Positions 587 through 54,720 of a stretch of DNA of 64,000 nucleotides are shown here, piece after piece. The DNA is taken from sequence record OR352946.1. One strand, given 5' to 3'. Positions within the stretch are counted from its first letter, which is position 1. Every line of letters begins with the position of its first letter. The notes below the pieces were generated by a model that saw only the letters and a program-made list of their open reading frames with translations, searched no databases and was not told where the DNA came from. The translations under genes were made by a program, and so were the position numbers. The stretch comes from Escherichia phage AV116.

Positions 587-802
587 TCAGTGTTGATTGT
601 AAACGGCTTTTTCTACGCTTTTAACGTAATTGGTATAGTCTTCCTGTTCGTACGAGTTTAAGGCTAAGAACAAAGCTAATAGTTCATTATAGACTAAAGC
701 CTCACGCTCACGTTCGGCTTCTACTACGTTCTGAAGATTATGGCTCATATTGTTCCTTATAACTATCAATGTAGTCCTGTATGTCAAAGAATGACATTTC
801 AT
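587..802 (-). CDS. small hypothetical ORF overlapping arn 3-prime end (doubtful)
   Basis: 71-codon ORF in another frame, overlaps arn-like CDS by about 65 nt. Confidence 0.15.
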   Translation of the reverse strand: MKCHSLTYRTTLIVIRNNMSHNLQNVVEAEREREALVYNELLALFLALNSYEQEDYTNYVKSVEKAVYNQH

Positions 803-1040
803 ATTCTAGGACATTAAGAGCCTGTTCTTCAGTGTAGTCAGAACCAAATACGATAGTGATTTCACCGGGTTTAGAATGACTGAAATCAACACTAAACTCA
901 ATTCGAGAACAGACTTCATCTTCCATATCTACGATAACACTACGACACACTTCTCGGTTAACCTGATAAAGCTCTGCAAGTTCTTCACATCGAATAACAA
1001 GTTCAGTGGCAGGATTTTCTTTGATTTTAGTAAGCATAGT
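738..1040 (-). CDS. arn: Arn-like anti-restriction protein (putative)
   Basis: About 100 aa from ATG at 1040 (MLTKIKENPATELVIRCEEL...); position between asiA and motA as in T4. Confidence 0.5.
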   Translation of the reverse strand, partial: TMLTKIKENPATELVIRCEELAELYQVNREVCRSVIVDMEDEVCSRIEFSVDFSHSKPGEITIVFGSDYTEEQALNVLEYEMSFFDIQDYIDSYKEQYEP

Positions 1041-1120
1041 CTTTACCCTTATGTTTTTGTTTGCGTTTAGATTGAAGTTCTGATTTCTTCTTGTCCTTAT
1101 GGACAGAAGCCTTATTGAAA

Positions 1121-1339
1121 TCATGTTTTGCTACAAGATTGTTCATAATGCTTTATAACCTCGTTTAAACATTTATCGGTAAAAGAAAACTTTTTAGCCA
1201 CAGAACATTCGATAATGTGCTCTTTCAAATCTTTAGAGTCGGTATATCCCATCTCAGTAATAAAGTGGCGAATTAAAGCTTTATTCTTATCATTAACAGA
1301 ATTAAAATAATCTGCTTTAGAATCAATTATTCTCATCAT
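1121..1339 (-). CDS. hypothetical early protein
   Basis: 72-aa ORF, co-directional, tightly packed. Confidence 0.45.
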   Translation of the reverse strand: MMRIIDSKADYFNSVNDKNKALIRHFITEMGYTDSKDLKEHIIECSVAKKFSFTDKCLNEVIKHYEQSCSKT

Positions 1340-1604
1340 CTAATTTCCTTAATTGATATTGCAACGAGCTAATAATTTCTTCGTTCATTTTAATATACAT
1401 GTCACGCAAGAAAGGTTTTAACCCATCACGAATAATTGCTAACGTATCACCTTTACATAAATTAACCAAATAAGGATGGTCTAAAGCGTCCCAACCAGGC
1501 TGATTAGCATACATACCATAGTTTTCTTCCATCATATGATTAAGACGTTTGATATCTTGGATACGTGATTCAATAGCATCTTTCTGGAGTTGTTTAATAT
1601 TCAT
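1323..1604 (-). CDS. hypothetical early protein
   Basis: 93-aa ORF, co-directional. Confidence 0.45.
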   Translation of the reverse strand: MNIKQLQKDAIESRIQDIKRLNHMMEENYGMYANQPGWDALDHPYLVNLCKGDTLAIIRDGLKPFLRDMYIKMNEEIISSLQYQLRKLDDENN

Positions 1605-2065
1605 TAATAAAGGTCCTCTGAATAAAGTTCTTTCTCACTTCCACCACGTTCAATACGTACCTGTCCAGCATACGTTGCAATAATCATTGCTTCTTCACGC
1701 GTCCAGTAATTAGAGTATTGGTCAATAAAGCCTTGGTCGTCACCACAAACTTGTTGCGAGACTAATTGAGGACCAACTATATCAAGTACTTCAGCCATAT
1801 CTTTAGAGTAATGACGAACTCCAGGAATAACTAGAGTTCCACCACTCTTCAATTTAAACCTATTAGCCGCACATACTATAACACGTTGAACTTTTTGGTC
1901 ATTATTCCAATAGCACGTTTGCCAACAGATTTCAGGAACTTCATTCATTATATCATCAGCAGAATAATTATAACCGTAGGACTGGAATTTTTCTGCTAGA
2001 CTTTCAGGAGTCTCACGAGACAAGGCCAAATCTAATAGCTCTAAACGTTCTTTAAATGATTTCAT
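1604..2065 (-). CDS. hypothetical early protein
   Basis: 153-aa ORF; 1-nt overlap with downstream ORF. Confidence 0.5.
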
Positions 2066-2391
2066 TTAAACCATTCCTTAATACGTTGCCAAATAGATTT
2101 TTGTGCTTGTTTATTTACACCAATCGAACGAATAATCGGTTGTGACTGCTGATATTCTTTATAATCTTCTTTATAGATTTCGTAAGCGGCATCAACAAAT
2201 GAACTGATCGCTGCCATGTAGTTTTTACGAAGGCCAAATGGAGCGTCATTATTTTCACGAATAACCGTATATTGGCCTGCTTTAATCTTTACAATTGTCC
2301 CTAAATAAGCCCCGTGGTACCAAATATCCCATCCTTCCTGAGTAGGTTCTGCACATTTACGAAGTTCGTTAATAATATTCAGCTTATTCAT
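2062..2391 (-). CDS. hypothetical early protein
   Basis: 109-aa ORF; ATGA overlap with upstream gene. Confidence 0.5.
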
Positions 2392-2401
2392 TATGTATTC
2401 C

Positions 2402-3034
2402 TCACAGTACGTTAGTTACAAGGGTAATGATTTCTTTGGACACATTAGGGAAGTCAATGTAAGTATATTTACCACCGATCTTAATCTTAACATCATTTTC
2501 AAGAGAAGTAAACAGCTTTGATTCAGTTTCTGACATGTTGTATGCAAAGATTCTAAGAGAACCATCTCGACGAATTTCGATCTGACGAATACCTAGAACT
2601 CGTTTTGCAAATCGAACTTCCAAGTTACTACGGTTTTCACCGATTTCTTTAACTTCAACTTTATCTTTAATATTTTCAAAAACAAAGTTTGCTAGTTCAT
2701 GCATTTCAGGAGTAACTCCACGTGCTTTTCTGGTGTTACGTTTCTGAAGAAGTTCTGGAGCATTTTCTTGAGCAAATAGGTCTGCAGCTTTTTGGATAAT
2801 ATCCATTGCTTCGCCTGTTGCTATAAGTCCATCACCAGATTTTTCGACTAAACCTTTCTTAATCAATACACCAATGTTAGAGTTAACAACCGATGCATTG
2901 TATTCTGCTTCCAGAGCTTCACGGACATTGGCAGCAGTGGTGAAGTTGTTCTTAATGATATAAACCATTATTGCAGCAGTTTTTTCATTCAGAGCGTTTT
3001 CAGAAGCTTTGATGATGTAAGTAACTTTAGACAT
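2402..3034 (-). CDS. motA: middle-transcription activator MotA
   Basis: 210 aa; MSKVTYIIKAS...NSNIGVLIKKGLVEKSGDGLI... matches T4 MotA pattern and length; adjacent to gene 52. Confidence 0.8.
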   Translation of the reverse strand: MSKVTYIIKASENALNEKTAAIMVYIIKNNFTTAANVREALEAEYNASVVNSNIGVLIKKGLVEKSGDGLIATGEAMDIIQKAADLFAQENAPELLQKRNTRKARGVTPEMHELANFVFENIKDKVEVKEIGENRSNLEVRFAKRVLGIRQIEIRRDGSLRIFAYNMSETESKLFTSLENDVKIKIGGKYTYIDFPNVSKEIITLVTNVL

Positions 3035-3073
3035 TTTATTTCTCCAATTTGGTTGTTTTGTTTTGATAGGTCT

Positions 3074-3102
3074 ATAATATCATGTTTGAAGCATATGTAA
3101 AC
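3074..3102 (-). promoter_or_regulatory. early sigma70-type promoter (GTTTAC-N17-TATTAT) upstream of motA
   Basis: Minus strand reads GTTTACatatgcttcaaacatgaTATTATagacctatca; leader carries GGAGAA RBS before motA ATG. Confidence 0.55.
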
Positions 3103-3123
3103 TGTTTTGTGAGAAAAATGCAC

Positions 3124-3144
3124 AAAAGGGAGCCGAAGCTCCCT
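3124..3144 (-). terminator. rho-independent terminator (GC-rich hairpin with UUCG loop then T-run) downstream of gene 52
   Basis: Plus aaaagggagcCGAAgctccct; on minus the hairpin is followed by TTTT. Confidence 0.5.
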
Positions 3145-3219
3145 AATCATGTTTGTCCAACCAATACAGCCAAATCACTAGTGCAGCTATTGCGCCGAGA
3201 AATCCTAAGGCTATGGCAC

Positions 3220-4545
3220 TCAAAGTGCCTCCAAGTCTTTAGTGTACTCTGTCACAACATCAGTAGACTTCCAATACTCATTTTCTTCTTTCTTAGCTTT
3301 AGCTTCTTCTGCTAGTTTACGTGCTTCATCGGAAGTGATATGGAAGATGTTAAGACCTACCAGTTTATCGACATGTTCTTTATACATTTCGATTTGTGCG
3401 AGCTCTTCAGTCAAAGCTTTACGAGTCTTGCCCTGAATCACAATTTCGCCGTTGATAACTTTTTTGATGAAGTGTGCCTTAGCAAAAGCCAGTTTAAATG
3501 CTTTTTCAGATTCAAGGATTTTGTTGTCAATACGTTTCTGAACGTAAGTCTTACGGACTTCAACAAAATCTTTGATTAAGTCCACTACGTTATCGTAGAC
3601 AGCTAATTTACCCTTTTCATTAATCACTGTGATGTTTTGTGAACGACGTTCGATGAGACTAAAATCTTTCATGATTTTTTCATGACGTAGCTCTTCATCA
3701 TCAGGAAGCGAGTACTCTTTACGGAACTTCACCTTAAACCCAAAGCCGTGTTCACCGCAATCATCTTCCCATGAGATTAGACCTTTGTCTTCCAACGGGT
3801 CAAGAACCTTACTCACATACGTTTCACGGTCGAATTTATATGGGATTTCAGTTATCTGCATTTGAGTGCGAGATGTGAACTTATATGTTCCGTGAATCTC
3901 ATAGCGCCCATCAACTTCATGTACTTCACCACGGAATTCCGGGAATTCAACTTTTGGCTTAGTGACATTTTTACCTTGAAGAGCTTGTAATACAGCCTTT
4001 TTGACTGATTTAAAACTATGAGGCAGAATATTTGTTGCGTAACCGGTTGCAATACCAGAGACGCCATTCAAAAGAACTGTCGGAATAATAGGAAGATAGA
4101 ATTTTGGTGGAATGTGTTCTTTATCTTCATGAGCTGGAGCATATTCAGTATCTTTATATACGTTATAGAAATTTTTACTTACACGAGCAAAAATATAACG
4201 AGATGCTGCAGCTTTTTGGACTGTTCTAGAACCAAAGTTGCCTTGGCCATCTAACAGTGGATAGTTGTTGTTCCATGTGTTAGCCATTAATGCACCTGCA
4301 TCTTGTGCAGAAGATTCACCATGGTGATAACCTAAATCTGCAACACCGCCTGCAATTGACGCAAGTTTATGAAATTTTTCTTTATTACCACGAGCCAAAT
4401 CTAACGCACGATGAACCACAAAACGTTGAACCGGCTTAAATCCATCAATCATGTTTGGGATTGCACGGTTTTCAACGGTGTACATAGCATATGCTAAGGC
4501 TTCGTTATCAATAATACTTTTTAGATTACGAGAATTCAATTGCAT
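3220..4545 (-). CDS. 52: DNA topoisomerase II medium subunit (gp52, GyrA-like)
   Basis: 441 aa; MQLNSRNLKSIIDNEALAYAMYTVENRAIPNMIDGFKPVQRFV... typical of T4 gp52. Confidence 0.9.
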   Translation of the reverse strand: MQLNSRNLKSIIDNEALAYAMYTVENRAIPNMIDGFKPVQRFVVHRALDLARGNKEKFHKLASIAGGVADLGYHHGESSAQDAGALMANTWNNNYPLLDGQGNFGSRTVQKAAASRYIFARVSKNFYNVYKDTEYAPAHEDKEHIPPKFYLPIIPTVLLNGVSGIATGYATNILPHSFKSVKKAVLQALQGKNVTKPKVEFPEFRGEVHEVDGRYEIHGTYKFTSRTQMQITEIPYKFDRETYVSKVLDPLEDKGLISWEDDCGEHGFGFKVKFRKEYSLPDDEELRHEKIMKDFSLIERRSQNITVINEKGKLAVYDNVVDLIKDFVEVRKTYVQKRIDNKILESEKAFKLAFAKAHFIKKVINGEIVIQGKTRKALTEELAQIEMYKEHVDKLVGLNIFHITSDEARKLAEEAKAKKEENEYWKSTDVVTEYTKDLEAL

Positions 4546-7654: not shown

Positions 7655-7855
7655 TCACAAGTTACGTTTAAAAATTTCTGCCACTTCGAGAAGTTCTTCT
7701 TTAGTAGCTGTGTCGGTTTGTATTTTATATCGAATTTCCTTAAAGCGTTCTTTAAAGGCTTCAGCTGATTCGATATCAAAAAATCTTTGGATAAGCCGGA
7801 ATTCCCGGAGCACTGCTTTATCAAAAAGTTCCAAGTCCACGTTATATGTTCTCAT
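7655..7855 (-). CDS. small protein (rIIA.1-like position)
   Basis: 66 aa from ATG at 7855 with GAAGAGAA RBS; ORF-track start 7885 reads through the inverted repeat. Confidence 0.4.
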   Translation of the reverse strand: MRTYNVDLELFDKAVLREFRLIQRFFDIESAEAFKERFKEIRYKIQTDTATKEELLEVAEIFKRNL

Positions 7856-7875
7856 AATATTCTCTTCAGTAGATT

Positions 7876-7936
7876 CCTGAGGCACTATTACTAAAGACCA
7901 TATAATCTATCATCTTATGTGTAATAGTGCCTCAGG
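7876..7936. repeat. perfect 16-bp inverted repeat with 29-nt loop
   Basis: cctgaggcactattac ... gtaatagtgcctcagg; intergenic between glycosyltransferase stop and small gene RBS; no T-run. Confidence 0.7.
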
Positions 7937-7947
7937 CGATTCAGGAT

Positions 7948-9048
7948 TTACGCTGTGAAGATTTTATCCCACATCGCAACAACTGCATCTCGATTATACT
8001 TCTTCCATACTGCTTCAGCACGTTTAACTCGAGCTTCGTATGTGTCAGTGAATTCTAATACAGCTTTTGTGTAAAGCGCAACTACTTCTTTCTTAGGAGT
8101 AGAGGAATCAATTTCTACACGCACAGTATCTGGGTCGTATTCGAATGTCGCATGAGGATAATCCTTAAAAACTAACTGGATTACAGGGACACCTTTAGAG
8201 ATGGCTTCAATAGAACTATTCTCTACCGTACCTGTGTCAGGACACGTATTAATAAGTGCTTTAGCTGTTTTAAGACGTTCCATGATTTCACTATGTGGAG
8301 CATCAATAATAACAGGATACTTAGCCGGTGGTGCCCATTTACTAGGACAGTATCCTGCACCATTTTCGCCTAGTGCTTTAATCGCTTCAAGAGCAACATC
8401 AGTGCGACGCATTTTAGTGTCATAACGTTGGGCACTAATAATCAAATCAGTTGCTGGGAGAACTTCTGGCTTTTCGGTCAAACAAATAACCGGGTAGTCA
8501 TCATGTTCAAATAATGGATTTTCACGCCAGTAATCATAATCAATGCTATCAGTAAGAGCTGAAGTCATATGGCAATATTTACGTTCAAATTCACGGAATG
8601 CTTTAGTAGGAGCATAGCTCTTACCACCGTATTTGTGGGTAAGAATAGTTTGTTTCCAAATTTCTACAATACCGCGAGATACAGGCTCAAATGGAGTTGC
8701 CATAAAATTTCTATGAACACTGGATAAACCGGCATCTTTAATTGCGTTAACAGTTAGTTTAGTCGGTTCCATAGTAACAACAAAATCGTATTCATGGATG
8801 CCGGCTAGTTCAACAATCTTACGAGCCATAGTATAACTCATACCTAGACTGAATTTAGTCAGATGACCAACAGGATGATGATTAACTTTCCAGTCACCAA
8901 ACGTGTCATTATCAAAGCCGATATAATCAATATCAGCACCGATGGACACAAGATATTTCAACACATTTAAATGTACTGCTTCAAGGCCACCTTGTACACG
9001 GTCAGGATTAAATGGGACTGCACGAGATGGGATAAACATAACTTTCAT
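7948..9048 (-). CDS. GT-B (GT4-like) glycosyltransferase
   Basis: 366 aa; N-terminus MKVMFIPSRAVPFNPDRVQGGLEAVHLNVLKYLVSIGADIDYIG typical of GT4 retaining glycosyltransferases. Confidence 0.55.
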   Translation of the reverse strand: MKVMFIPSRAVPFNPDRVQGGLEAVHLNVLKYLVSIGADIDYIGFDNDTFGDWKVNHHPVGHLTKFSLGMSYTMARKIVELAGIHEYDFVVTMEPTKLTVNAIKDAGLSSVHRNFMATPFEPVSRGIVEIWKQTILTHKYGGKSYAPTKAFREFERKYCHMTSALTDSIDYDYWRENPLFEHDDYPVICLTEKPEVLPATDLIISAQRYDTKMRRTDVALEAIKALGENGAGYCPSKWAPPAKYPVIIDAPHSEIMERLKTAKALINTCPDTGTVENSSIEAISKGVPVIQLVFKDYPHATFEYDPDTVRVEIDSSTPKKEVVALYTKAVLEFTDTYEARVKRAEAVWKKYNRDAVVAMWDKIFTA

Positions 9049-9074
9049 AATTAAGCCTTATTAAAATTAAAATG

Positions 9075-9092
9075 AAGCTCCCGAAGGAGCTT
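9075..9092 (-). terminator. hairpin terminator (UUCG loop) between HNH endonuclease and glycosyltransferase genes
   Basis: Plus aagctccCGAAggagctt; minus followed by cATTTTAATTTT. Confidence 0.4.
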
Positions 9093-9888
9093 AGGACATC
9101 CAACACATTTTATAACCTTTGCAGGTTCTGTTAGGATTATTTAATGCTTTCAATATATTAGAAGACCCTATATCTAAATACTCCCTTAATTCATAAAGAT
9201 AGTTAAAATCAATAGTTTCACCTGTTTTTACACTTGTGATTCTTATAGGCCTTCTTTCATATTTAGATTTATACAACTCTCTAGTCTTAGCTTTAGTTTC
9301 TTCTGACCTAGGAGTGTATGGTTTAAATCCTTTTGTTTTAAATGTTTCCATTCTTGATTTAGTTATTTTATCCTGGTGTTCTTTTGTTTTTACAGGTGCT
9401 TTTCGCCCATTCTCCCAAGATAACTTGTTGGCCTGTATTATTTTATCTATTGCTTCTTGCGTATGAGTTTTACCATAAAATGGATTTAATTCGCCTATAC
9501 GTTGTGAAGCAATATGTGACATTAATTCTCTTGTTGCTTTAGTATGTTTTTTACCTTTAAATGGATTGCCATTTTTAGCAATCCATTCTTTCATAAATCT
9601 AGAGTGCTCTTTAGAGAATTCTTGTTTAAGCCAATCATAATCTCTAGAATTTCTAGCTCCCATGTAAAAAGCTCTAATAGCCATAAGCATAGAACGGTTC
9701 TTATGAATTTTATAAAGCAATAAATGGGCGATAAAATGCTCTCTAGGGGTCATTTTAACTAGATTTGATTTAGCATTACTCCCACCCATAGATTTAGGCA
9801 AAATATGGTGAGTTTCAGTATAATTAGGAATAGTGCTGCGGTTTTTAGCCGCAGCGATAAGTTTATCATAAATTTTACGATAATTCAT
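9091..9888 (-). CDS. HNH homing endonuclease with NUMOD3 repeats (MobA-like)
   Basis: HHILPKSMGGSNAKSNLVKMTPREHFIAH HNH motif; NPFYGKTHT and NPFKGKKHT repeats; ATG at 9888 overlaps gene 39 stop (TAATG). Confidence 0.8.
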   Translation of the reverse strand: MNYRKIYDKLIAAAKNRSTIPNYTETHHILPKSMGGSNAKSNLVKMTPREHFIAHLLLYKIHKNRSMLMAIRAFYMGARNSRDYDWLKQEFSKEHSRFMKEWIAKNGNPFKGKKHTKATRELMSHIASQRIGELNPFYGKTHTQEAIDKIIQANKLSWENGRKAPVKTKEHQDKITKSRMETFKTKGFKPYTPRSEETKAKTRELYKSKYERRPIRITSVKTGETIDFNYLYELREYLDIGSSNILKALNNPNRTCKGYKMCWMS

Positions 9889-11711
9889 TATCCTAGCATC
9901 CAATCTTTACGGAGTTCAGGGTCGTTACCCATGAGCATTTCAAATAGTTCTTTCCAATTTTCAGGAAGTTTAACTACGTCGTACACAGGGTTTTGAATCA
10001 TTTCTTTATATTCATCCCGCTGAAGTGAGCCCAATCCCTTGATGTATCGAATACTATGCTTAGGCAGTGTATCTTTAACTTCTTCATACTCAGCTACAGT
10101 ATAAAACCATTTTTGAGTTTTGCCAATTTGTGCAATAATTACAGGCGTTTTAACAAAGCGAATACGTCCTTGTTCAAACAATTCAGGCCAATTACTAAAG
10201 AAAGCAAGCAAAGCCGGATAAATACTTCCAAGGCCGTCATGATCGGCATCGGTCATAATTGCAATATTACGGTAGTTCGTATTCTCTGCCTTTTCACCAA
10301 GAATAAGACCCGTGATAGCACAGATATCAAAGAGCTCTTTGTTCTTCATCATATCGGCATATGACATACCCCAGCTATTCATCACCTTACCACGTAATGG
10401 GAATCCGCCGTGTAGTTCACGGTCACGAACATCAATGAGATAACCAATTGCCGAATCACCTTCTGTTAAAAACAATGTCGTATCTGCATCTTTACCACAT
10501 TGGTTAGCTTTAATATGCTTATGAACCTTAGCTTTAGTTGCCTTTTTAGCTGCTTTAGTTTCTGCAGCCTTTTCTGCTGCCAATTTACGAGCTAATGCGG
10601 CTTCAATTATAGGCATTAAAACTGCGTCAGAATTCAAAATATTTTTTGCCAATTTTTTTGTATCTAATTTAATATGCGTCCGAATTTCGCCATAAGGACT
10701 TGTTAAACGCTCTTTGGTTTGGGAATCAAAACGAAGGTTCTTCATTCCACGAACGAACATTAAGAGAGTGAGACATTCCTTGATTCGCGCTTTAGTCACG
10801 TCGATTTTATATTTGCGTTTAATAGCCGGAATTAATTCTTCGCTAATGTCGTCCATCACACATTCAATGTGATGACCACCGTTTTTGGTATGGATGTTAT
10901 TCACATAAGTTAAATGACGGAAGCCATCTGGTGACCGTCCAATGGCAATAGAGCATCCGTCTTGTTCTTGAATGATGGTCTCTTCATCAAATTGTTTAGC
11001 AAACTTCTTAAAGTTACCTTGAATCTTTTTGCCATTAAATTTAAATTCAATACCAGGATAAACGACCGCCAATGTTTGGAGCCGGTCTATAGTAATATCT
11101 TGGTATATTTTTTCAAATTGATTCATTTCAAAATGTGAGAAATCAGGAATAAACTCGACCTTAGTACCGTTGTTTTTAGACGGCTTAGATTTCCAAGAAA
11201 TATTATCAGCGTTATTAGAACAATTAACGGTCAATTCATTTTTACCATCTGAAGTAGTGCCAACAAAAGAGACAGAAAAAATATTTGTTAATGAAGAACC
11301 GACACCGTTTTGTCCACCCGTAACACGTTCTTTGTCGTCACCAAAGTTGCCACCGGCTTTTGTACGTGTCCACGCCGCAACTGGTCCTGGAATTTCTTCT
11401 CCTTCAGGAGTAATAACTGTTTCTTGAGGAATACCTCGACCATTATCTTCAACAGTCACTTTATTAGAATTTAAATCAATACTAACGGAAATTTTATTAG
11501 CATATTTGAAATTGGTTCGAATAGCTTCGTCTACTGAGTTGTCAATAATTTCATCAATTAATTTGAGAACACCTGCAACATATTTAACCTTTTTAAATTC
11601 ACCGAATAGGAAACGTTCTTGTTCTTCATTGGCAACACTTCCAATATACATGCCAGGACGCTTCAAACAATGCTCTTTATCAGATAGCATTTCAATTTTA
11701 TTATCAATCAT
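9888..11711 (-). CDS. 39: DNA topoisomerase II large subunit (gp39, GyrB-like), unsplit
   Basis: About 607 aa from ATG 11711 (MIDNKIEMLSDKEHCLKRPGMYIGS...); one continuous ORF spanning ATPase and Toprim parts. Confidence 0.9.
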   Translation of the reverse strand: MIDNKIEMLSDKEHCLKRPGMYIGSVANEEQERFLFGEFKKVKYVAGVLKLIDEIIDNSVDEAIRTNFKYANKISVSIDLNSNKVTVEDNGRGIPQETVITPEGEEIPGPVAAWTRTKAGGNFGDDKERVTGGQNGVGSSLTNIFSVSFVGTTSDGKNELTVNCSNNADNISWKSKPSKNNGTKVEFIPDFSHFEMNQFEKIYQDITIDRLQTLAVVYPGIEFKFNGKKIQGNFKKFAKQFDEETIIQEQDGCSIAIGRSPDGFRHLTYVNNIHTKNGGHHIECVMDDISEELIPAIKRKYKIDVTKARIKECLTLLMFVRGMKNLRFDSQTKERLTSPYGEIRTHIKLDTKKLAKNILNSDAVLMPIIEAALARKLAAEKAAETKAAKKATKAKVHKHIKANQCGKDADTTLFLTEGDSAIGYLIDVRDRELHGGFPLRGKVMNSWGMSYADMMKNKELFDICAITGLILGEKAENTNYRNIAIMTDADHDGLGSIYPALLAFFSNWPELFEQGRIRFVKTPVIIAQIGKTQKWFYTVAEYEEVKDTLPKHSIRYIKGLGSLQRDEYKEMIQNPVYDVVKLPENWKELFEMLMGNDPELRKDWMLG

Positions 11712-12387
11712 TAGATTTTCTCTCAAATTGCATGACTATATTTTTGTATGAACCTTCCGGAAATCCACGTTTAATGCTTTCTTTAGCAAATTTCCCAACC
11801 TTTGGTTTATCCAATTCTAACCATAATTTATATAAAGCAGATTCATATTCCCATACAGGACTTTTACGATTTTTAAGCCCACACTTTATAAGCGCTTCCT
11901 TTGTATGTTTCTTATTATAAAATGGATTGTTTTTGCCACTCATTGCTTTAGAATGTTCCGGGCGCTTAATTCCATACATCGGATTAAGATCGCCTTTCTT
12001 GATAACGGATTGTAGTTCAATAGTTTCTTCAGAGTGATTGTGTCCATAAAATGGATTTAACTCTTTTGAAACATCCATACCAAAGCACCCATCGACTGTG
12101 GCATAAGACATGTTGAAAAATTTTTCAGATTTAACCACATTATGCAATTTCTGGTAATACAACTCACAAAACGTCGCTTCTTCCCGTGTATCAAATTCGC
12201 CAATAATACATGAATCAAATAAATGAGGATTATCTTTTATCTCTTTATCATAAATTTGTTTATATTTTTTCGACTTTACCGTACCATGATAGTGATTGTT
12301 TGTATGTTTATCAAGATAAGTAGACCCTATATAAAACGGTGGCAACTTATCGCCTGTGTATATTGTTAAGTATGTTATGTATTTCAT
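11704..12387 (-). CDS. GIY-YIG homing endonuclease with NUMOD3 repeats (Seg-like)
   Basis: KYITYLTIYTGDKLPPFYIGSTY; NPFYGHNHS, NPMYGIKRP, NPFYNKKHT repeats. Confidence 0.8.
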   Translation of the reverse strand: MKYITYLTIYTGDKLPPFYIGSTYLDKHTNNHYHGTVKSKKYKQIYDKEIKDNPHLFDSCIIGEFDTREEATFCELYYQKLHNVVKSEKFFNMSYATVDGCFGMDVSKELNPFYGHNHSEETIELQSVIKKGDLNPMYGIKRPEHSKAMSGKNNPFYNKKHTKEALIKCGLKNRKSPVWEYESALYKLWLELDKPKVGKFAKESIKRGFPEGSYKNIVMQFERKSND

Positions 12388-12415
12388 AAAGGTATTCTAT
12401 CATCCGAAATCTAAA

Positions 12416-12436
12416 GCAAAAAGGGCCGAAGCCCTT
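12416..12436 (-). terminator. rho-independent terminator (UUCG hairpin then T5) before the Seg-like gene
   Basis: Plus aaaaagggcCGAAgccctt; minus hairpin followed by TTTTT. Confidence 0.5.
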
Positions 12437-12857
12437 ATTTAAATTTAATTTTCTGAAGTGCATCAATTGCAGCCAAACGCCCTTGTTCACTTTTAACTGT
12501 AACGACCACATCGCCTGATACGATCACCGAACCATCAACAAATTCTATAGAGCCTTTTTTGAAATCGACAGCTGTATCTGGTTCCGGAACTTCTTCAAAG
12601 AATTTAAATTCTGCACCATAAAGCAGAATATCACCTTGCATACTAATGATTGTACGTCCAGGTCCATCGGTTTCAGCGGCAATAATCGAAACGCCGTAAC
12701 CAATCATCTCTTCCACAATAAAATCTTTGGACAATAAAGTAGTATGCAGATTAGTATTAAGACGTTTACCAGTCGTATTAAGAATTCTCAAGAAATTATC
12801 TTCCTGTCCTTTGATAATACGATATTTCTTACCAACTTCAAAACCTTTAAAAGCCAT
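12435..12857 (-). CDS. hypothetical early protein (position of T4 goF)
   Basis: 140-aa ORF; synteny only. Confidence 0.45.
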   Translation of the reverse strand: MAFKGFEVGKKYRIIKGQEDNFLRILNTTGKRLNTNLHTTLLSKDFIVEEMIGYGVSIIAAETDGPGRTIISMQGDILLYGAEFKFFEEVPEPDTAVDFKKGSIEFVDGSVIVSGDVVVTVKSEQGRLAAIDALQKIKFK

Positions 12858-12859
12858 AA

Positions 12860-13039
12860 TTAACCCTTCTTAAGTAAGTCGTAAAAACCACCGTTCACAT
12901 GTTTAGGAGCAGAAACCCGACGAGTAGACAGACGATGACATTCAGGGCAAACATCGGTTTCTCGTTCAGAAATTCTTTTAATTTTTTCATATTCATGACC
13001 ACAATCTTCAGATTGGCATTTATAGTCGTATAACGGCAT
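12860..13039 (-). CDS. zinc-ribbon protein (59 aa), not in ORF track
   Basis: [17 protein letters not shown]...CPECHRLSTRR; CxxC...CPxC; TAATG coupling on both sides. Confidence 0.5.
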   Translation of the reverse strand: MPLYDYKCQSEDCGHEYEKIKRISERETDVCPECHRLSTRRVSAPKHVNGGFYDLLKKG

Positions 13040-13470
13040 TATTGTTCCTTAAAGCGAGCTTTCAACATTTGATACAAAGACCATGCCTGGTCGTTATTTT
13101 CGATAGTAATCGTCATCACCGGAAATTCAGACAATTCGTCAAGTTCACCAGAATCTTGCTCTTCGGACTCTTGATATGGATTTCCAACTTCGTCAAAGAA
13201 CTCTGCTTCATTCGTGGAGAGCCAGATAAAGTTTTCATCAAGGATATCACCGCCTGTTGCGTATCCAACCGTGCCAGTAGATGTCACAATTTTAGTAGGA
13301 CGACCAAGATGGTCAACATCTAATACTTTAAATGGTTCCATGCCAAGACGTCGTGCATAAATCCCATTATCAGTGTGGTTTTTAATAAACTCTTCTTGGG
13401 CACGTTTATCTTTAAATTGGTACCATGAGTTAACGTGGAATTTATTAGCCATTAGTAAGTTTCCTTCCAA
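13039..13470 (-). CDS. hypothetical early protein
   Basis: 143-aa ORF. Confidence 0.45.
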
Positions 13471-45754: not shown

Positions 45755-46773
45755 TGTGTTGCCTCAATATAAAGTTCGTTGGAATATTTGACCAGCGCTT
45801 CTCTGTCTTCATCTGAGATATCTGGAATCGCGTCAATATATTCTTTAATGATATCTTGAAGTGATTTAATCTCGATTTCCTGGTCGTCATCAGATTCAAC
45901 ACTGTTATCAACTTTAGAAACCATACGAAGAGAGTGAACTACTTTTTCAAGTTCAGATTCAAACTTAGTCAACTCTGAATCAATTTCTGATACTATAACA
46001 CGTACGGCTAGATTAGTATAATCAGAATAATTGATTTTGCCTTTAAATGGATAAGTGATTCGTCGATGCCATGTTGTTTCATTAGGAATAAATTCCATAC
46101 GTTCAACATCAGTGTCAAATACCCAGAATCCGCGCGGGTCGTTCTCATCACCTGCAGTAAGGGTCCATGGTGTCCCAATATATTTGACGTTAGCAGCTTC
46201 AGAGATTGTGTGGAAGTGGCCGGACCAGACTTGTTTATAGGTCTTTAAGAAATCAGGTTCAAGCCCATGAGACTTCATTCCTTTATAGAAATAGAAGCCA
46301 TTTAATTCCCAGTGCCCAACACAATACGCTGCAGAAGAAGTCTTGATGTGCTCTAAGATTTCACCTGTATTTTCTTCACACATCCATGGAATCAAATCAA
46401 TCAAGCACCCATCAAAATCTACTGTAGTTGGCTTATCATAAATTATTACGTTTTTACGATGGCTCAATAATTCTTGAACAGTGTTAGGATATAAGGTTGT
46501 TTTATAAAAGAGATCATGATTCCCAAGTATTGTATGGACTGTTATACCAGCGGCTTCCACCAAATCAAACATTTCACGCGTGAATTCCATACAACGTTGT
46601 GTGGTGTGGGCTCTGACATCAAATGTATCACCATATTGAATCCATGTTGTTATTCCATTTGCGACGGAATAGTCGATCATTTGTCTGAAACCGTCACGTT
46701 GTATAGCTTGAATCCAATCGTCGTCTTTTTTGACGCCTAGATGCAAATCGCCTATATTAAGTATTTTCATCAC
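45751..46773 (-). CDS. 47: recombination endonuclease subunit gp47 (Mre11/SbcD-like)
   Basis: 340 aa; phosphoesterase motifs GDLHLG, GNHD. Confidence 0.9.
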   Translation of the reverse strand: MMKILNIGDLHLGVKKDDDWIQAIQRDGFRQMIDYSVANGITTWIQYGDTFDVRAHTTQRCMEFTREMFDLVEAAGITVHTILGNHDLFYKTTLYPNTVQELLSHRKNVIIYDKPTTVDFDGCLIDLIPWMCEENTGEILEHIKTSSAAYCVGHWELNGFYFYKGMKSHGLEPDFLKTYKQVWSGHFHTISEAANVKYIGTPWTLTAGDENDPRGFWVFDTDVERMEFIPNETTWHRRITYPFKGKINYSDYTNLAVRVIVSEIDSELTKFESELEKVVHSLRMVSKVDNSVESDDDQEIEIKSLQDIIKEYIDAIPDISDEDREALVKYSNELYIEATQ

Positions 46774-47573
46774 ATACCTTTAAATTTGGAGTAAATTATA
46801 TTGTGGTACGATATATCAGGAAACCCTTTATCGACCGCAATTTTTCTAAACTTATTAGGACTTATTTTACCACACTCCATCCATAATGCAAACAACTCGT
46901 CAAAATGCTCATATGCTGGACCTCGACGAGCTTTTGACACAGCAGCACTTATGCGAGCCTTTTTCTCAGAATCAAGGTTTTTAAGAGAATTACTTATTTT
47001 ATTTTTTTGCTCTTCTGAATTGAAGGTGCCTTTTTCCCAGCCTAAAGGTTGGCTTCCTTCATGGAACATTTTTCTTGAAGTTCCATTGGTATACCATATT
47101 TTACCTTTATTGTGCCCTGATGCTTTATATTTTGGTGAGCGTCCTTTTATAAATCCTTCAGGTATAGTAGGAGCAAATGTTTGTTCAAGGGTTTCTGGGT
47201 TATACGAATGTATGTTATTTTTGGCGTTATGAGACCCATATAATGGGTGATTTTTACCAGAAACATCACGCCCAAAGAAACCAGTTGGTGATGCCAAAGA
47301 CATATTCATATACAAAGGATTTTTATGAGCTTGAACTCTAATTTGATAGTCCTTTTCCACCTTTAAAGCTTCTTCTCGTGTTGGATGTTCGCTCAAAATA
47401 CAAGAATCAAACAACGTAGGATTTTCTAAAAGTTCTTTGTTATAAATTTTACGATAGGCTTTAGATAGAATAGTACCATGATACCCGTTTAAATGTTTTT
47501 CTAAGCTAGTCGAACCTATGTAAAAAGGTGGTAGCTTATCTCCAGAATAAATTGTCAAATAGACTATAAACAT
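46770..47573 (-). CDS. GIY-YIG homing endonuclease with NUMOD3 repeats (Seg-like)
   Basis: 267 aa from ATG 47573 (MFIVYLTIYSGDKLPPFYIGSTS...); paralog of 11704..12387. Confidence 0.8.
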   Translation of the reverse strand: MFIVYLTIYSGDKLPPFYIGSTSLEKHLNGYHGTILSKAYRKIYNKELLENPTLFDSCILSEHPTREEALKVEKDYQIRVQAHKNPLYMNMSLASPTGFFGRDVSGKNHPLYGSHNAKNNIHSYNPETLEQTFAPTIPEGFIKGRSPKYKASGHNKGKIWYTNGTSRKMFHEGSQPLGWEKGTFNSEEQKNKISNSLKNLDSEKKARISAAVSKARRGPAYEHFDELFALWMECGKISPNKFRKIAVDKGFPDISYHNIIYSKFKGM

Positions 47574-47597
47574 ATATTTCTCCTTTGATTTAAGGAG

Positions 47598-47627
47598 ATT
47601 ATAACACGCCTTTAATGAAGCGTAAAC
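47598..47627 (-). promoter_or_regulatory. early promoter (GTTTAC-N18-TATAAT) for the Seg-like gene
   Basis: Minus GTTTACgcttcattaaaggcgtgtTATAAT then AAGGAGAA RBS. Confidence 0.5.
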
Positions 47628-47655
47628 AAAAAAAGGAAGCACTAGGCTTCCTTTT
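47628..47655 (-). terminator. rho-independent terminator (hairpin then T8)
   Basis: Plus aaaaaaaggaagcACTAGgcttcctttt. Confidence 0.6.
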
Positions 47656-52094: not shown

Positions 52095-53908
52095 TGGTGT
52101 TTAACCCTATGCATGATTTCTTTATTTTTACCGAGATTAAATCCGCGTTCGTTCGGATTTCCCAAATAGCCGCATGTTCTTCTTATGGTGTTCATCTTTT
52201 TAGGATCAGTTTCTCCGCAAACTGAACAAACAAATCCATTTTCGGTAGGAGTCATTTCATGAGTACTTCCACATGTAAAACATTTATCTACTGGCATATT
52301 AACACCAAAATAATCTAAATGTTGTGCAGCATAATCCCAGACAGCCTCAAGTCCTTTTAAGTTATTTTTCATATCAGGAAGTTCAACATAAGAAATGTGA
52401 CCACCTGTCGCAATGAAATGATACGGCGCTTCACGAGAAATCTTTTCAAACGGAGTAGTATTTTCTTCTACTGAAACGTGGAAACTGTTAGTGTACCAGC
52501 CTTTATCGGTAACATCTTTTACACTTCCATATTTTTCTGTATCAAGTTTACAGAAGCGATAACAAAGGTTTTCAGCAGGAGTAGAATACAAACTAAAAGC
52601 AAAACCAGTTCTTTCAGTCCACTGTTTAAGATGAGCATTCATTTTAGTTAAAATTTCTTGTCCAATATCACGACCGACAAGAATATTCAATTCATGAATA
52701 CCGATGTATCCTAAAGACACTGAACTTCTACCGTTTTTAAATAGCTCAATTATATCGTCATCAGGTTTAAGACGAACCCCGAATGCACCTTCTTGGTAAA
52801 GAATAGGAGCAACAGTCGCTTTAACTCCTTTTAAGGAACTAATTCTACACATCAAAGCTTCAAAACACAGGTCCATTCGTTCATTGAATAATTCAACAAA
52901 TTTCTGTTCATTGAACTGTGTTCCAATATAAGAATCTAATGCGATACGAGGAAGATTCAGTGTTACAACGCCGAGATTATTACGACCGTCAAGAATTTCA
53001 TTTCCAGTTGAATCTTTCCATACGCTCAAGAAACTACGGCAACCCATCGGAGAAACTGGAACTGAAGAACCGGTAATAGCTTTATTATTCTTAACTGAAA
53101 TAATGTCAGGATACATTCTTTTGCTTGCACATTCTAACGCAAGTTGTTTAATATCATAGTTTGGATCATCTTTATAAAGATTAACACCTTCTTCAAAAAA
53201 CATAACAAGCTTAGGGAAAATAGGAGTTATTCCATCACGTCCAAGGCCTTTAATGCGGTTTTTAAGAATTGCCTTCTGAATCATTCGTTCAGTCCAGTCA
53301 GTTCCCGTACCAAATGTAATTGTCACAAAAGGCGTTTGTCCGTTTGAACTAAAGAGAGTGTTTACTTCATATTCATAAGCTTGGAATGCATCGTATACGT
53401 CTTTTTCTGTTTTAGATTGAGCATAATTCAGAATGTCTGGTATTTGCCATTTTTCTGCATCTTCAACATGTTTAGCGTATGTGCGTTTAACATAAGGAGA
53501 AAGAACTTTATCGACATTCGCAAATGTAGTTCCGCCATACTGGTGTGAAGCAACTTGTGCAGTAATTTGTGCCATAATTGCAGTAGCAACGCCAATAGAT
53601 TTAGGCGTTTCAATTTGAGCATTGCCTAATTTAAATCCATTCTCAAGCATTCCTTTTAAATCTACTAAACAGCAATTAGTAAAAGGCAATGATATACTAT
53701 AATCTAAATCGTGAAAATGAATTAATCCGACATTATGAGCATTTACAATATGGCTCGGAAGAATACTACAAGCGATATGTTTAGAAACAATACCGGCCAT
53801 TAAATCTCTTTTTGTTGGAAAGACACGAGAATCTTTGTTGGCATTTTCGGTATTTAATTCTTTATCTTTATTTGAAATAAAATTTAAAACATCTTTCTCT
53901 AAAGACAT
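52091..53908 (-). CDS. nrdD: anaerobic ribonucleoside-triphosphate reductase NrdD (class III), intron-less
   Basis: 605 aa; glycyl-radical motif RTCGYLG; C-terminal zinc site. Confidence 0.95.
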   Translation of the reverse strand: MSLEKDVLNFISNKDKELNTENANKDSRVFPTKRDLMAGIVSKHIACSILPSHIVNAHNVGLIHFHDLDYSISLPFTNCCLVDLKGMLENGFKLGNAQIETPKSIGVATAIMAQITAQVASHQYGGTTFANVDKVLSPYVKRTYAKHVEDAEKWQIPDILNYAQSKTEKDVYDAFQAYEYEVNTLFSSNGQTPFVTITFGTGTDWTERMIQKAILKNRIKGLGRDGITPIFPKLVMFFEEGVNLYKDDPNYDIKQLALECASKRMYPDIISVKNNKAITGSSVPVSPMGCRSFLSVWKDSTGNEILDGRNNLGVVTLNLPRIALDSYIGTQFNEQKFVELFNERMDLCFEALMCRISSLKGVKATVAPILYQEGAFGVRLKPDDDIIELFKNGRSSVSLGYIGIHELNILVGRDIGQEILTKMNAHLKQWTERTGFAFSLYSTPAENLCYRFCKLDTEKYGSVKDVTDKGWYTNSFHVSVEENTTPFEKISREAPYHFIATGGHISYVELPDMKNNLKGLEAVWDYAAQHLDYFGVNMPVDKCFTCGSTHEMTPTENGFVCSVCGETDPKKMNTIRRTCGYLGNPNERGFNLGKNKEIMHRVKHQ

Positions 53909-54720
53909 AATTCTAATTTATCCTTTTGAAATTCTTCGTCTAAATATGGGTTCCAACCCATTTTAAACCTTTTGATGAAATTATCAATTCTAAATTTCGG
54001 TAAATTTAACTCCGCAAAAATAGATGATTTACTTTTAAAATCTGGACCTAAATAATCATATAAAATTTCTGCGTATTTTAACCATAATATATAAGTACCA
54101 GATTTAATTGCGTTCGGAGTTTTCCAAGGTTTTACACCATACATCGGATTTCCACTTCCTTTATGCCTGATAGAAGATGAAATTCCAATTTTAATTTTAG
54201 CTTCCTTTGTATGCGAAAATCCACGATGCGGATTTTCTTTCCAGTATTTTTTAGCAGCTTCTGATATTTTCTTTCTGGCTAAATTAGTATGATGCTTTCC
54301 ATAAAATCCATGATTTTTGCCTTTATTACGATTTCTTTTAATCATGGTTATTGATTGCTTTTCTCTAGTTTCTTTAGAAGGAGAAATACCATATGTCGTA
54401 AATTTGCCATCAGCATATGCTAAATTAAAATACTCTTTATTCCATACATCTTTTTCTATATTCTTTTGAAATTCAGCTTCAATGCTAGTTATTTGTTCAT
54501 CTCCGACTAATTGAAAATATAATATTTCAACTTTCGGCGTTTCTTTCAATAAGGCTTTTTGAAATTCGGAAGATGACGAAGACGAATAATAAAATTTACC
54601 ATTTTTATCAATAATATTCGTTCCATCAAAAGTGCAATTGGTTTTACTTCCAATGTAATAATATGGTGGGGTTTTAGCATTAATTCTATTAATAAATGAT
54701 AGTTTATATACTACATTCAT
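53899..54720 (-). CDS. GIY-YIG homing endonuclease (free-standing)
   Basis: VVYKLSFINRINAKTPPYYYIGSKT; NPMYGVKP NUMOD-like repeat. Confidence 0.75.
   Translation of the reverse strand: MNVVYKLSFINRINAKTPPYYYIGSKTNCTFDGTNIIDKNGKFYYSSSSSSEFQKALLKETPKVEILYFQLVGDEQITSIEAEFQKNIEKDVWNKEYFNLAYADGKFTTYGISPSKETREKQSITMIKRNRNKGKNHGFYGKHHTNLARKKISEAAKKYWKENPHRGFSHTKEAKIKIGISSSIRHKGSGNPMYGVKPWKTPNAIKSGTYILWLKYAEILYDYLGPDFKSKSSIFAELNLPKFRIDNFIKRFKMGWNPYLDEEFQKDKLELCL

Follow-up and report, generated by a model that had tools for sequence, protein, structure and literature searches.

Putative free-standing homing endonuclease genes at both ends of the unsplit topoisomerase gene 39 of Escherichia phage AV116

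In phage T4 the gene for the large subunit of the type II DNA topoisomerase is divided into genes 39 and 60. According to published work, the MobA element inserts at nucleotides (nt) ~1399-1419 of the topoisomerase gene and splits it, with C- and N-terminal extensions and a 50-nt bypass. What, then, is to be made of Escherichia phage AV116, in which a single topoisomerase open reading frame (ORF) is overlapped at either end by a predicted endonuclease gene? A preliminary description of a 64,000-nt stretch of its genome (sequence record OR352946.1; the window), made from the sequence alone, took this arrangement for a different stage of the invasion seen in T4. The comparisons presented here make it very probable instead that the block from 12436 to 9075 is a Mosigvirus gene-39 transcription unit that has been colonised by two unrelated, promoter-less, free-standing homing endonuclease genes: a Seg-like gene of the GIY-YIG type at the 5' end and a Mob-like gene of the HNH type at the 3' end. 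Both would be ordinary members of a known and well-documented phenomenon rather than a new kind of system. The positions (9091-12387) and overlaps reported earlier are correct, and the three ORFs were confirmed on the minus strand.

The integrity of gene 39 is evident from its alignment with T4 genes 39 and 60, a check that the preliminary description had proposed. Residues 1-475 of the protein align with T4 gp39 1-473 at 76% identity and residues 474-605 with T4 gp60 27-158 at 83% identity (BLASTP). The window ORF has no gap or stop at the T4 take-off site, DADHDG/LGSIY, where T4 carries its 50-nt coding gap. Pfam assigns HATPase_c, DNA_gyraseB, Toprim and TOPRIM_C, which cover the GHKL ATPase, transducer and Toprim domains, and the protein matches phrog_543 at 4e-283. 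The single ORF of about 607 amino acids (aa) thus contains the entire T-even topoisomerase II large subunit, gp39 and gp60 in one chain, as had been claimed. This colinearity rules out a hidden bypass or split, and the gene is predicted to be intact and to need no recoding. The features of the T4 MobA-bypass cassette are absent, for there is no insertion or gap at nt ~1399-1419 and the HNH gene of the window lies after nt 1821.

The ORF downstream of gene 39 is predicted by sequence and structural model to be an HNH endonuclease of the T4 Mob type. Its protein has an HNH domain at aa 1-~70 followed by NUMOD3 repeats, and E25, H27, H28, N42, H51 and H55 are invariant in an alignment of 44 HNH homologues. 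Pfam HNH (PF01844) matches 30 of these 44, while the window protein alone reaches only HNH_4, at an E-value of 0.0075. The best Foldseek match of the model is I-HmuI (probability 1.0). The protein displays the beta-beta-alpha-metal motif with its conserved His/Asn/His and homology to T4 Mob proteins, and its gene is free-standing and patchily distributed. Its first 71 residues share 61% identity with an intact MobA (from Escherichia phage CJY920), and the remainder, with the NUMOD3 repeats, is unrelated to it. Homologues of 45% identity lie directly 3' of the topoisomerase gene in metagenomic T4-like contigs. In one of these contigs (Logan SRR21291448; 1144-1851 and 3664-4491) the 45%-identical homologue overlaps the topoisomerase 3' end by 16 nt, and an ORF of 235 aa with an Endonuclease_7 domain lies directly 5' of the topoisomerase gene, which places a third type of endonuclease at the 5' site.

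The point of entry of the HNH gene can be read by comparison with phage HX01, which does not carry it. The HX01 topoisomerase gene ends ...CGTAAAGAATGGATGTCCTAA (R-K-E-W-M-S-stop), directly ahead of the same hairpin that follows the HNH gene in the window. The window topoisomerase gene ends ...GATTGGATGCTAGGATAA (D-W-M-L-G-stop), where its stop codon overlaps the HNH start in a TAATG at 9888, as originally described, and the HNH ORF ends ...TGTTGGATGTCCTAA. The uninvaded HX01 end, also written ...GAATGGATGTCCTAA, is the counterpart of TTGGATGTCCTAA, now displaced to the end of the HNH gene. The TTGGATG of this displaced end repeats a copy at 9903-9897, with 800 nt between the two copies. These junctions indicate that the HNH element sits inside the last codons of gene 39, to which it gave a different C-terminus, and that its reading frame continues into the displaced former end. 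In the majority of Mosigviruses, as in T4-type phages, the junction is uninvaded and simple, EWMS-stop. A rare HNH-less allele in OLB35 (2687-2725) and CCU7 has the DWMLG end all the same, and retains ~16 extra nt and a displaced AGATGTCCTAA remnant; it is best read as the scar of a secondary loss of the HNH gene.

The upstream ORF overlaps the topoisomerase ATG by 8 nt, its TGA lying inside ATGATTGA, and its protein has a divergent catalytic domain of the GIY-YIG type at aa 1-~100, a set of three NUMOD3 motifs and, C-terminally, a helical domain. Pfam detects NUMOD3 only, phmmer against the Protein Data Bank (PDB) with this protein gave no match, and a profile of the family matched only the DNA-binding domain of I-TevI in the same database. 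Since the GIY-YIG label could not be read from Pfam, structure prediction and a fold search were needed. The AlphaFold2 model has a predicted local distance difference test (pLDDT) score of 91 overall and 97 over the N-domain, whose topology is beta-beta-alpha-alpha-beta-alpha. Its three top Foldseek matches are the I-TevI catalytic domain (probability 0.85-0.99, template modelling score 0.59-0.63), followed by the GIY-YIG domain of UvrC, so that the modelled N-domain has the GIY-YIG catalytic fold. In an alignment of 46 homologues Y10, G12, Y19-I20 (of the 'YIG' motif Y19-I20-G21), Y33, S39 and E75 are invariant and N92 is nearly so; the reference catalytic residues of I-TevI are E75 and N90. 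Weak matches to Pfam GIY-YIG (PF01541), at E<=0.1, occur in 16 of the 46. The earlier assignment of this ORF to the GIY-YIG endonucleases can be accepted at the level of the predicted fold. Its label as an 'HNH endonuclease', both in RefSeq (NC_018855, HX01 D299_gp190) and in PHROG 10820 on the N-domain, is contradicted by the fold search and appears to be wrong.

Orthologues of the Seg-like protein with 65-71% identity are encoded directly 5' of the topoisomerase gene in Tegunavirus, Dhakavirus and Jiaodavirus, and their ORFs, as annotated, run past the topoisomerase start by 8 nt in TG1 and EcWhh-1 and by 14 nt in Nispero. Across genera the proportion of nonsynonymous differences (pN) is ~0.21 and that of synonymous differences (pS) 0.66-0.8, which points to purifying selection; the corresponding ratio of nonsynonymous to synonymous rates (dN/dS), ~0.1-0.2, is approximate only because dS is saturated for most pairs. 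Two more Seg-like paralogues occur on the minus strand of the window, at 46770-47642 and 53899-54720, with 38% and 28% identity to the one linked to gene 39. One of them sits immediately 5' of gene 47 (recombination endonuclease), which it overlaps, and is annotated only as 'hypothetical protein'; the remaining one is found between gene 49 (endonuclease VII) and nrdD.

Evidence that both genes are mobile comes from close relatives. Positions 8900-12600 are 100% identical in Escherichia phages AV109 and AV114, which like AV116 are RB69-like T-even phages of the genus Mosigvirus, and 99.6-99.8% identical in AV115 and AV118. Among Mosigviruses that are ~98% identical elsewhere in the locus, all four states of occupancy are found: both genes in AV109, AV114, AV115 and AV118; the Seg-like gene only in HX01, JM10 and G2285; the HNH gene only in phi25-307, p000v, AV111 and others; and neither gene in about 130 records. 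The HNH gene was counted in 27 records, compared with ~134 in which the junction is contiguous and HNH-less.

Each gene is accompanied by its own variant of gene 39. Phages with the Seg-like gene have in common a 5' tract (nt 1 to ~1110) that is 98% identical among them, as between the window and HX01, and only 71% identical to that of Seg-less Mosigviruses, as far as to another genus, and from nt ~1113, the start of a conserved stretch, all Mosigviruses are 97-100% identical. The N-terminus of the topoisomerase tracks the Seg-like gene, reading MIDNKIE... where the gene is present and MIKNEIK... where it is absent. No donor of this tract was found, the best isolates being Dhakaviruses (77% nt identity) and the best metagenomic protein having 78% aa identity. 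At the other end, the 3' tract (nt ~1686 to the end) is common to phages with the HNH gene and OLB35, the window being 100% identical to the former and 85% identical to the HX01 allele. The window, like AV109, combines the Seg-linked 5' tract with the HNH-linked 3' tract, and the sharp boundaries of the tracts coincide with the presence of the endonuclease genes. Linked tracts of this kind are typical of co-conversion and, together with the four occupancy states, support the earlier suggestion that mobile elements have invaded the locus. In AV118, 1-nt indels in T6 runs (window-equivalent positions 9546 and 12265) break the HNH and Seg-like ORFs, respectively, as would be expected from the decay of selfish genes if they represent real pseudogenisation.

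The HNH gene has also crossed between genera. Its protein is 98.9-100% identical in the 27 records (~21 distinct phages), always adjoining the topoisomerase gene, and six of these phages are Tequatroviruses; the gene itself is ~99-100% identical in phages whose adjoining gene-39 sequence is only ~70% identical. In the Tequatrovirus fPS-90, a Yersinia phage, gene 39 is RB3-like (~98%) to nt ~1408 and Mosigvirus-like (98-100%) from there to its end, so that the import comprises the HNH gene and ~410 nt of Mosigvirus-type gene 39. On the 3' side of the HNH gene the import continues through the terminator of the Mosigvirus and 47 nt from the start of a 366-aa gene that is found in Mosigviruses only, and is then joined, at the microhomology AAT(C/G)CTGACC, to the phage's own old gene-39 end (TTCGTAAAGAATGGATGAGCCAGTAG). 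A chimeric ORF of 24 codons (MKVMFIPSRAVPFNPDLRKEWMSQ, then a stop) spans this junction at 2482-2556, where the 47 nt of the 366-aa gene are in frame with the last 26 nt of the original Tequatrovirus topoisomerase gene; it is a footprint of the transfer. The fragment of a Mosigvirus-only gene sets the direction of transfer, from Mosigvirus to Tequatrovirus, and the six Tequatroviruses received the HNH gene along with a fragment of a Mosigvirus gene. A junction of this form is what break repair with one-sided homology would give. Another Tequatrovirus, Shigella phage SP21535, has neither MobA nor the HNH gene; it is RB3-like to topoisomerase nt ~1400 and beyond that a patchwork of Mosigvirus-identical and RB3-identical blocks of 50-100 nt. 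Its breakpoint in the published MobA insertion window suggests a recombination hotspot.

These comparisons present a model in which the locus was entered twice. The Seg-like gene would have inserted between the middle promoter of gene 39 and the gene-39 start, bringing ~1.1 kb of foreign gene-39 sequence, and its 3' end would now provide gene 39 with a new ribosome-binding region and probably with an embedded middle promoter. The HNH gene would have entered within the final four codons of gene 39 with a replacement C-terminus, DWMLG-stop, starting at the TAATG and reading out through the displaced WMS-stop codons into the native terminator hairpin. In a mixed infection each enzyme would presumably cut or nick an endonuclease-free topoisomerase allele near its own insertion site, and recombinational repair from the carrier genome would then copy the endonuclease gene with its flanking gene-39 sequence by co-conversion. 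The variant gene-39 sequence of the carrier would be resistant to its own enzyme.

The signals around the genes, all of which lie on the minus strand and are listed with the genes in Table 1 in the order of transcription, are consistent with this model. The terminator scan found 13 candidates in the region against 3.4 expected, both UUCG hairpins among them, and each has the GC-rich stem and U-run of a predicted intrinsic terminator. The hairpin at 12436-12421 is identical in Seg-less Mosigviruses and is the predicted terminator of the upstream 140-aa gene, just ahead of the promoter of the block. The hairpin at 9092-9075 overlaps the HNH stop codon, is followed by an interrupted U-run (CAUUUUAAUUUU), occurs in HNH-less phages too and was carried along into the Tequatroviruses; it is predicted to be the native terminator of the topoisomerase gene, now 3' of the HNH gene. 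The preliminary description had a UUCG hairpin before each endonuclease gene. This is right for the GIY-YIG gene only, the second hairpin coming after the HNH stop, so that the two hairpins bracket the three-gene block.

Table 1. Genes, tracts and predicted signals of the gene-39 block in the order of transcription (window positions)
Feature	Position	Strand	Basis or remark
140-aa gene, upstream of the block	end at 12435	-	
UUCG-tetraloop hairpin, AAGGGC-UUCG-GCCCUU then UUUUG (predicted terminator)	12436-12421	-	terminator scan; RNA fold -10.1 kcal/mol
T4 middle-promoter-like site, MotA box TGCTTTA, 12 nt, TAGAAT	12394..12418	-	pattern search
Putative Seg-like GIY-YIG/NUMOD3 homing endonuclease gene, 227 aa	12387-11704	-	
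Second middle-promoter-like motif, TGCTTTA-N13-TAGAAT, in the Seg-like ORF	11814..11839	-	pattern search; ~100 nt 5' of the topoisomerase ATG
Unsplit topoisomerase II large subunit gene, 607 aa	ATG 11711 to stop 9890-9888	-	
5' tract of foreign origin in the topoisomerase gene (nt 1 to ~1110)	10599..11711	-	identity to Seg-positive HX01
Variant 3' tract linked to the HNH gene, topoisomerase nt ~1686-1824, with DWMLG-stop	9888..10026	-	identity to HNH-positive phages
Putative Mob-like HNH/NUMOD3 homing endonuclease gene, 265 aa	9888-9091	-	start is the ATG of TAATG
Displaced original topoisomerase 3' end, TTGGATGTCCTAA (W M S stop)	9091..9103	-	now the last HNH codons
UUCG-tetraloop hairpin, AAGCUCC-UUCG-GGAGCUU then CAUUUUAAUU (predicted terminator)	9092-9075	-	terminator scan; RNA fold -10.5 kcal/mol, z -2.5
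366-aa gene, then rIIA.1 and rIIA	9048-7948	-	

Promoters were assessed in two ways. A scan for sigma-70 promoters was uninformative, with 19 sites against 20 expected, and it was the T4 middle-promoter pattern that proved informative, with 14 sites in the window against 1.9 expected. Seg-less phages have conserved the site ahead of the block, and its syntenic counterpart in fPS-90 carries the annotation 'predicted middle promoter'; we infer that the site ahead of the block is the native gene-39 promoter, now ahead of the Seg-like gene and driving it. The native gene-39 Shine-Dalgarno sequence, GAGGAG, is replaced in the window. The second motif, inside the Seg-like ORF, is kept in the HX01, TG1 and Nispero orthologues and has one mismatch in EcWhh-1, at a divergence at which synonymous sites are saturated, and it is likely to be a replacement middle promoter for gene 39. 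This layout fits the pattern described for the promoter-less seg and mob cassettes of T4, which carry embedded promoters for the downstream gene (Edgell et al., PMC2988022). A search with Rfam over 7800-13200 returned no structured RNA or intron at E<=1.

How the locus relates to the split gene of T4 is illustrated by Escherichia phage CJY920, a Tequatrovirus whose record (PQ349265.1) is unannotated. At 800-4459 it has a gene 39 with a MobA-type C-terminal extension, an intact MobA of 272 aa, a gene 60 with the T4 50-nt coding gap (1942-1994) and, attached to the gene-60 end through a TAATG, the 265-aa HNH gene of the window: two HNH elements in one topoisomerase locus. The presence of MobA, bypass and HNH gene together implies that the elements are independent and additive, and not stages of one event.

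The notion that the window represents an earlier or later stage of the invasion that produced the T4 39/mobA/60 arrangement with its bypassing is improbable for this reason, and for others. The insertion sites differ, lying in the last codons here and at nt ~1400 for MobA, the window gene has neither of the two terminal extensions nor a coding gap, the C-terminal two-thirds of the HNH protein and MobA are unrelated, and the Seg element is unrelated to MobA. What speaks for a common history is that the identity of the HNH domain to MobA lies within the 53-70% seen between MobA clades (supplement, 10.1101/2022.08.31.505936), that the HNH element and MobA target the same gene, and that the left crossover of fPS-90 (nt 1408-1413) falls inside the published insertion window of MobA. 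Part of this could be accommodated by a narrower proposal, in which the 3'-end element is a sister of MobA, with a MobA-clade nuclease domain on a NUMOD3 module, and cuts at or near the MobA target at nt ~1400. It draws on the coincidence of the fPS-90 and SP21535 breakpoints with the MobA insertion window, and is to be regarded as unlikely. If it were true, one cleavage site would be exploited in two alternative ways, by the gene-end element and by the MobA-bypass cassette in mid-gene, and the gene-end element would be a concrete candidate for the ancestor of the gene-60 bypass cassette, by transposition into its own target.

Could both ORFs instead be vertically inherited residents, such as accessory factors of the topoisomerase operon, made patchy by repeated deletion? 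In favour of this, four genera have a Seg orthologue at this one position, in each case overlapping the topoisomerase start; the orthologues are under purifying selection, and OLB35 looks like a case of secondary HNH loss. Residence is nevertheless very hard to reconcile with a near-identical HNH gene beside gene-39 sequences that are only ~70% identical, with the import recorded by the Mosigvirus-only fragment in fPS-90, with the simple junction that most Mosigviruses share with T4-type phages, or with a Seg-linked 5' tract that is no closer to other Mosigviruses than to other genera, and it is the least probable of the explanations considered. Homing endonuclease genes commonly decay once fixed, and one or both copies in the window might be inactive relics that no longer home. 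The frameshifts of both genes in AV118 would accord with this, as would the lack of the canonical GIY-YIG Arg and the escape from the Pfam model in the Seg-like family. Both window ORFs are intact, however, with all family-invariant residues, the HNH gene has spread very recently (at least 98.9% identity in two genera), and the dN/dS of the Seg family is low, so that relics too seem unlikely.

Colonisation of the transcription unit by two homing endonuclease genes therefore accounts best for the locus, and several points weigh against it. Nuclease activity, cleavage sites and homing are attributed to both proteins from comparative evidence only. The linked tracts could in principle have arisen when diverged phages recombined in the ordinary way and the endonuclease genes were carried along, and the AV118 frameshifts may be homopolymer sequencing errors, since both fall in T-runs. 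The Seg-like protein of the window stays below every Pfam and NCBIfam GIY-YIG threshold (TIGR01453 at 2.9e-5 is under the cut-off), Foldseek gave modest E-values (0.04 and 0.01), and the family alignment did not reveal the usual catalytic Arg.

A comparison with characterised elements places both genes among the free-standing endonucleases of T-even phages. The HNH element resembles the T4 MobA cassette in its target gene and its HNH domain (61% identity over 71 aa), and each lacks a promoter and overlaps the 3' end of the ORF ahead of it. It differs in that it lies in the last four codons, where only the final residues are replaced and recoding is unneeded, and in that its NUMOD3 DNA-binding part is unrelated to that of MobA. 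In its position at the 3' end of a conserved gene of DNA metabolism, with overlapping stop and start codons, it is closer to T4 MobE, which lies between nrdA and nrdB, and to other free-standing Mob HNH genes (PMC2988022). The T4 Mob HNH genes are transcribed from promoters of the host gene (PMC2988022), and the same is suggested here by the arrangement of the signals. The modelled fold matches I-HmuI. From MobE, the other free-standing Mob genes and I-HmuI it is set apart by its target gene and its C-terminal region. The 2022 preprint on bypassing does not name this gene; the elements that it calls MobZ, MobY1 and MobZA are located elsewhere (baseplate, uvsW and dCTPase).

The Seg element, which bears no relation to MobA at all, is most like SegF and SegG, the T4 GIY-YIG enzymes of 'intronless homing'. 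As they do, it stands free, adjoins a conserved gene, has a long co-inherited flanking tract and contains NUMOD3; the modelled catalytic domain has the fold of I-TevI, and promoters for downstream genes embedded in the endonuclease ORF have been described for T4 (PMC2988022). Unlike SegF, SegG and I-TevI, it has a divergent domain without a Pfam GIY-YIG match, a shorter spacing from 'GIY' to 'YIG' and no identifiable canonical Arg. Its site upstream of gene 39 is empty in T4.

No new mechanism is revealed by this locus, and its interest lies elsewhere. Two uncharacterised putative homing endonucleases are added to the T-even catalogue, one Seg-like at the 5' end of gene 39 and one Mob-like at the 3' end, and the topoisomerase large-subunit gene is seen to be targeted repeatedly, at no fewer than three separate points: its 5' end, nt ~1400 and its 3' end. 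The relatives form a natural series of uninvaded, invaded, apparently secondarily lost and frameshifted states, with a cross-genus transfer that took along a hitchhiking gene fragment, from which substrates and partners for crosses can readily be drawn to map cleavage sites and co-conversion. Database labels are also corrected, since several records list members of the Seg-like family as 'HNH endonuclease' or 'hypothetical protein'. In GenBank the three ORFs are 'hypothetical protein', 'DNA topoisomerase large subunit' and 'homing endonuclease'. They are not discussed in the AV-phage genome paper, and the phiC120 and AV-phage genome papers have just 'a homing endonuclease with NUMOD3', or nothing.

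The 366-aa gene that follows the block, a fragment of which was carried into fPS-90, deserves a remark of its own. RB69-like phages arabinosylate their own DNA, and the gene may, we presume, be a candidate arabinose transferase. It is not at the equivalent position in T4-type phages, and its product, which the RefSeq record of HX01 names 'DNA alpha-glucosyltransferase', has no Pfam match and belongs to PHROG 8302 (unknown function).

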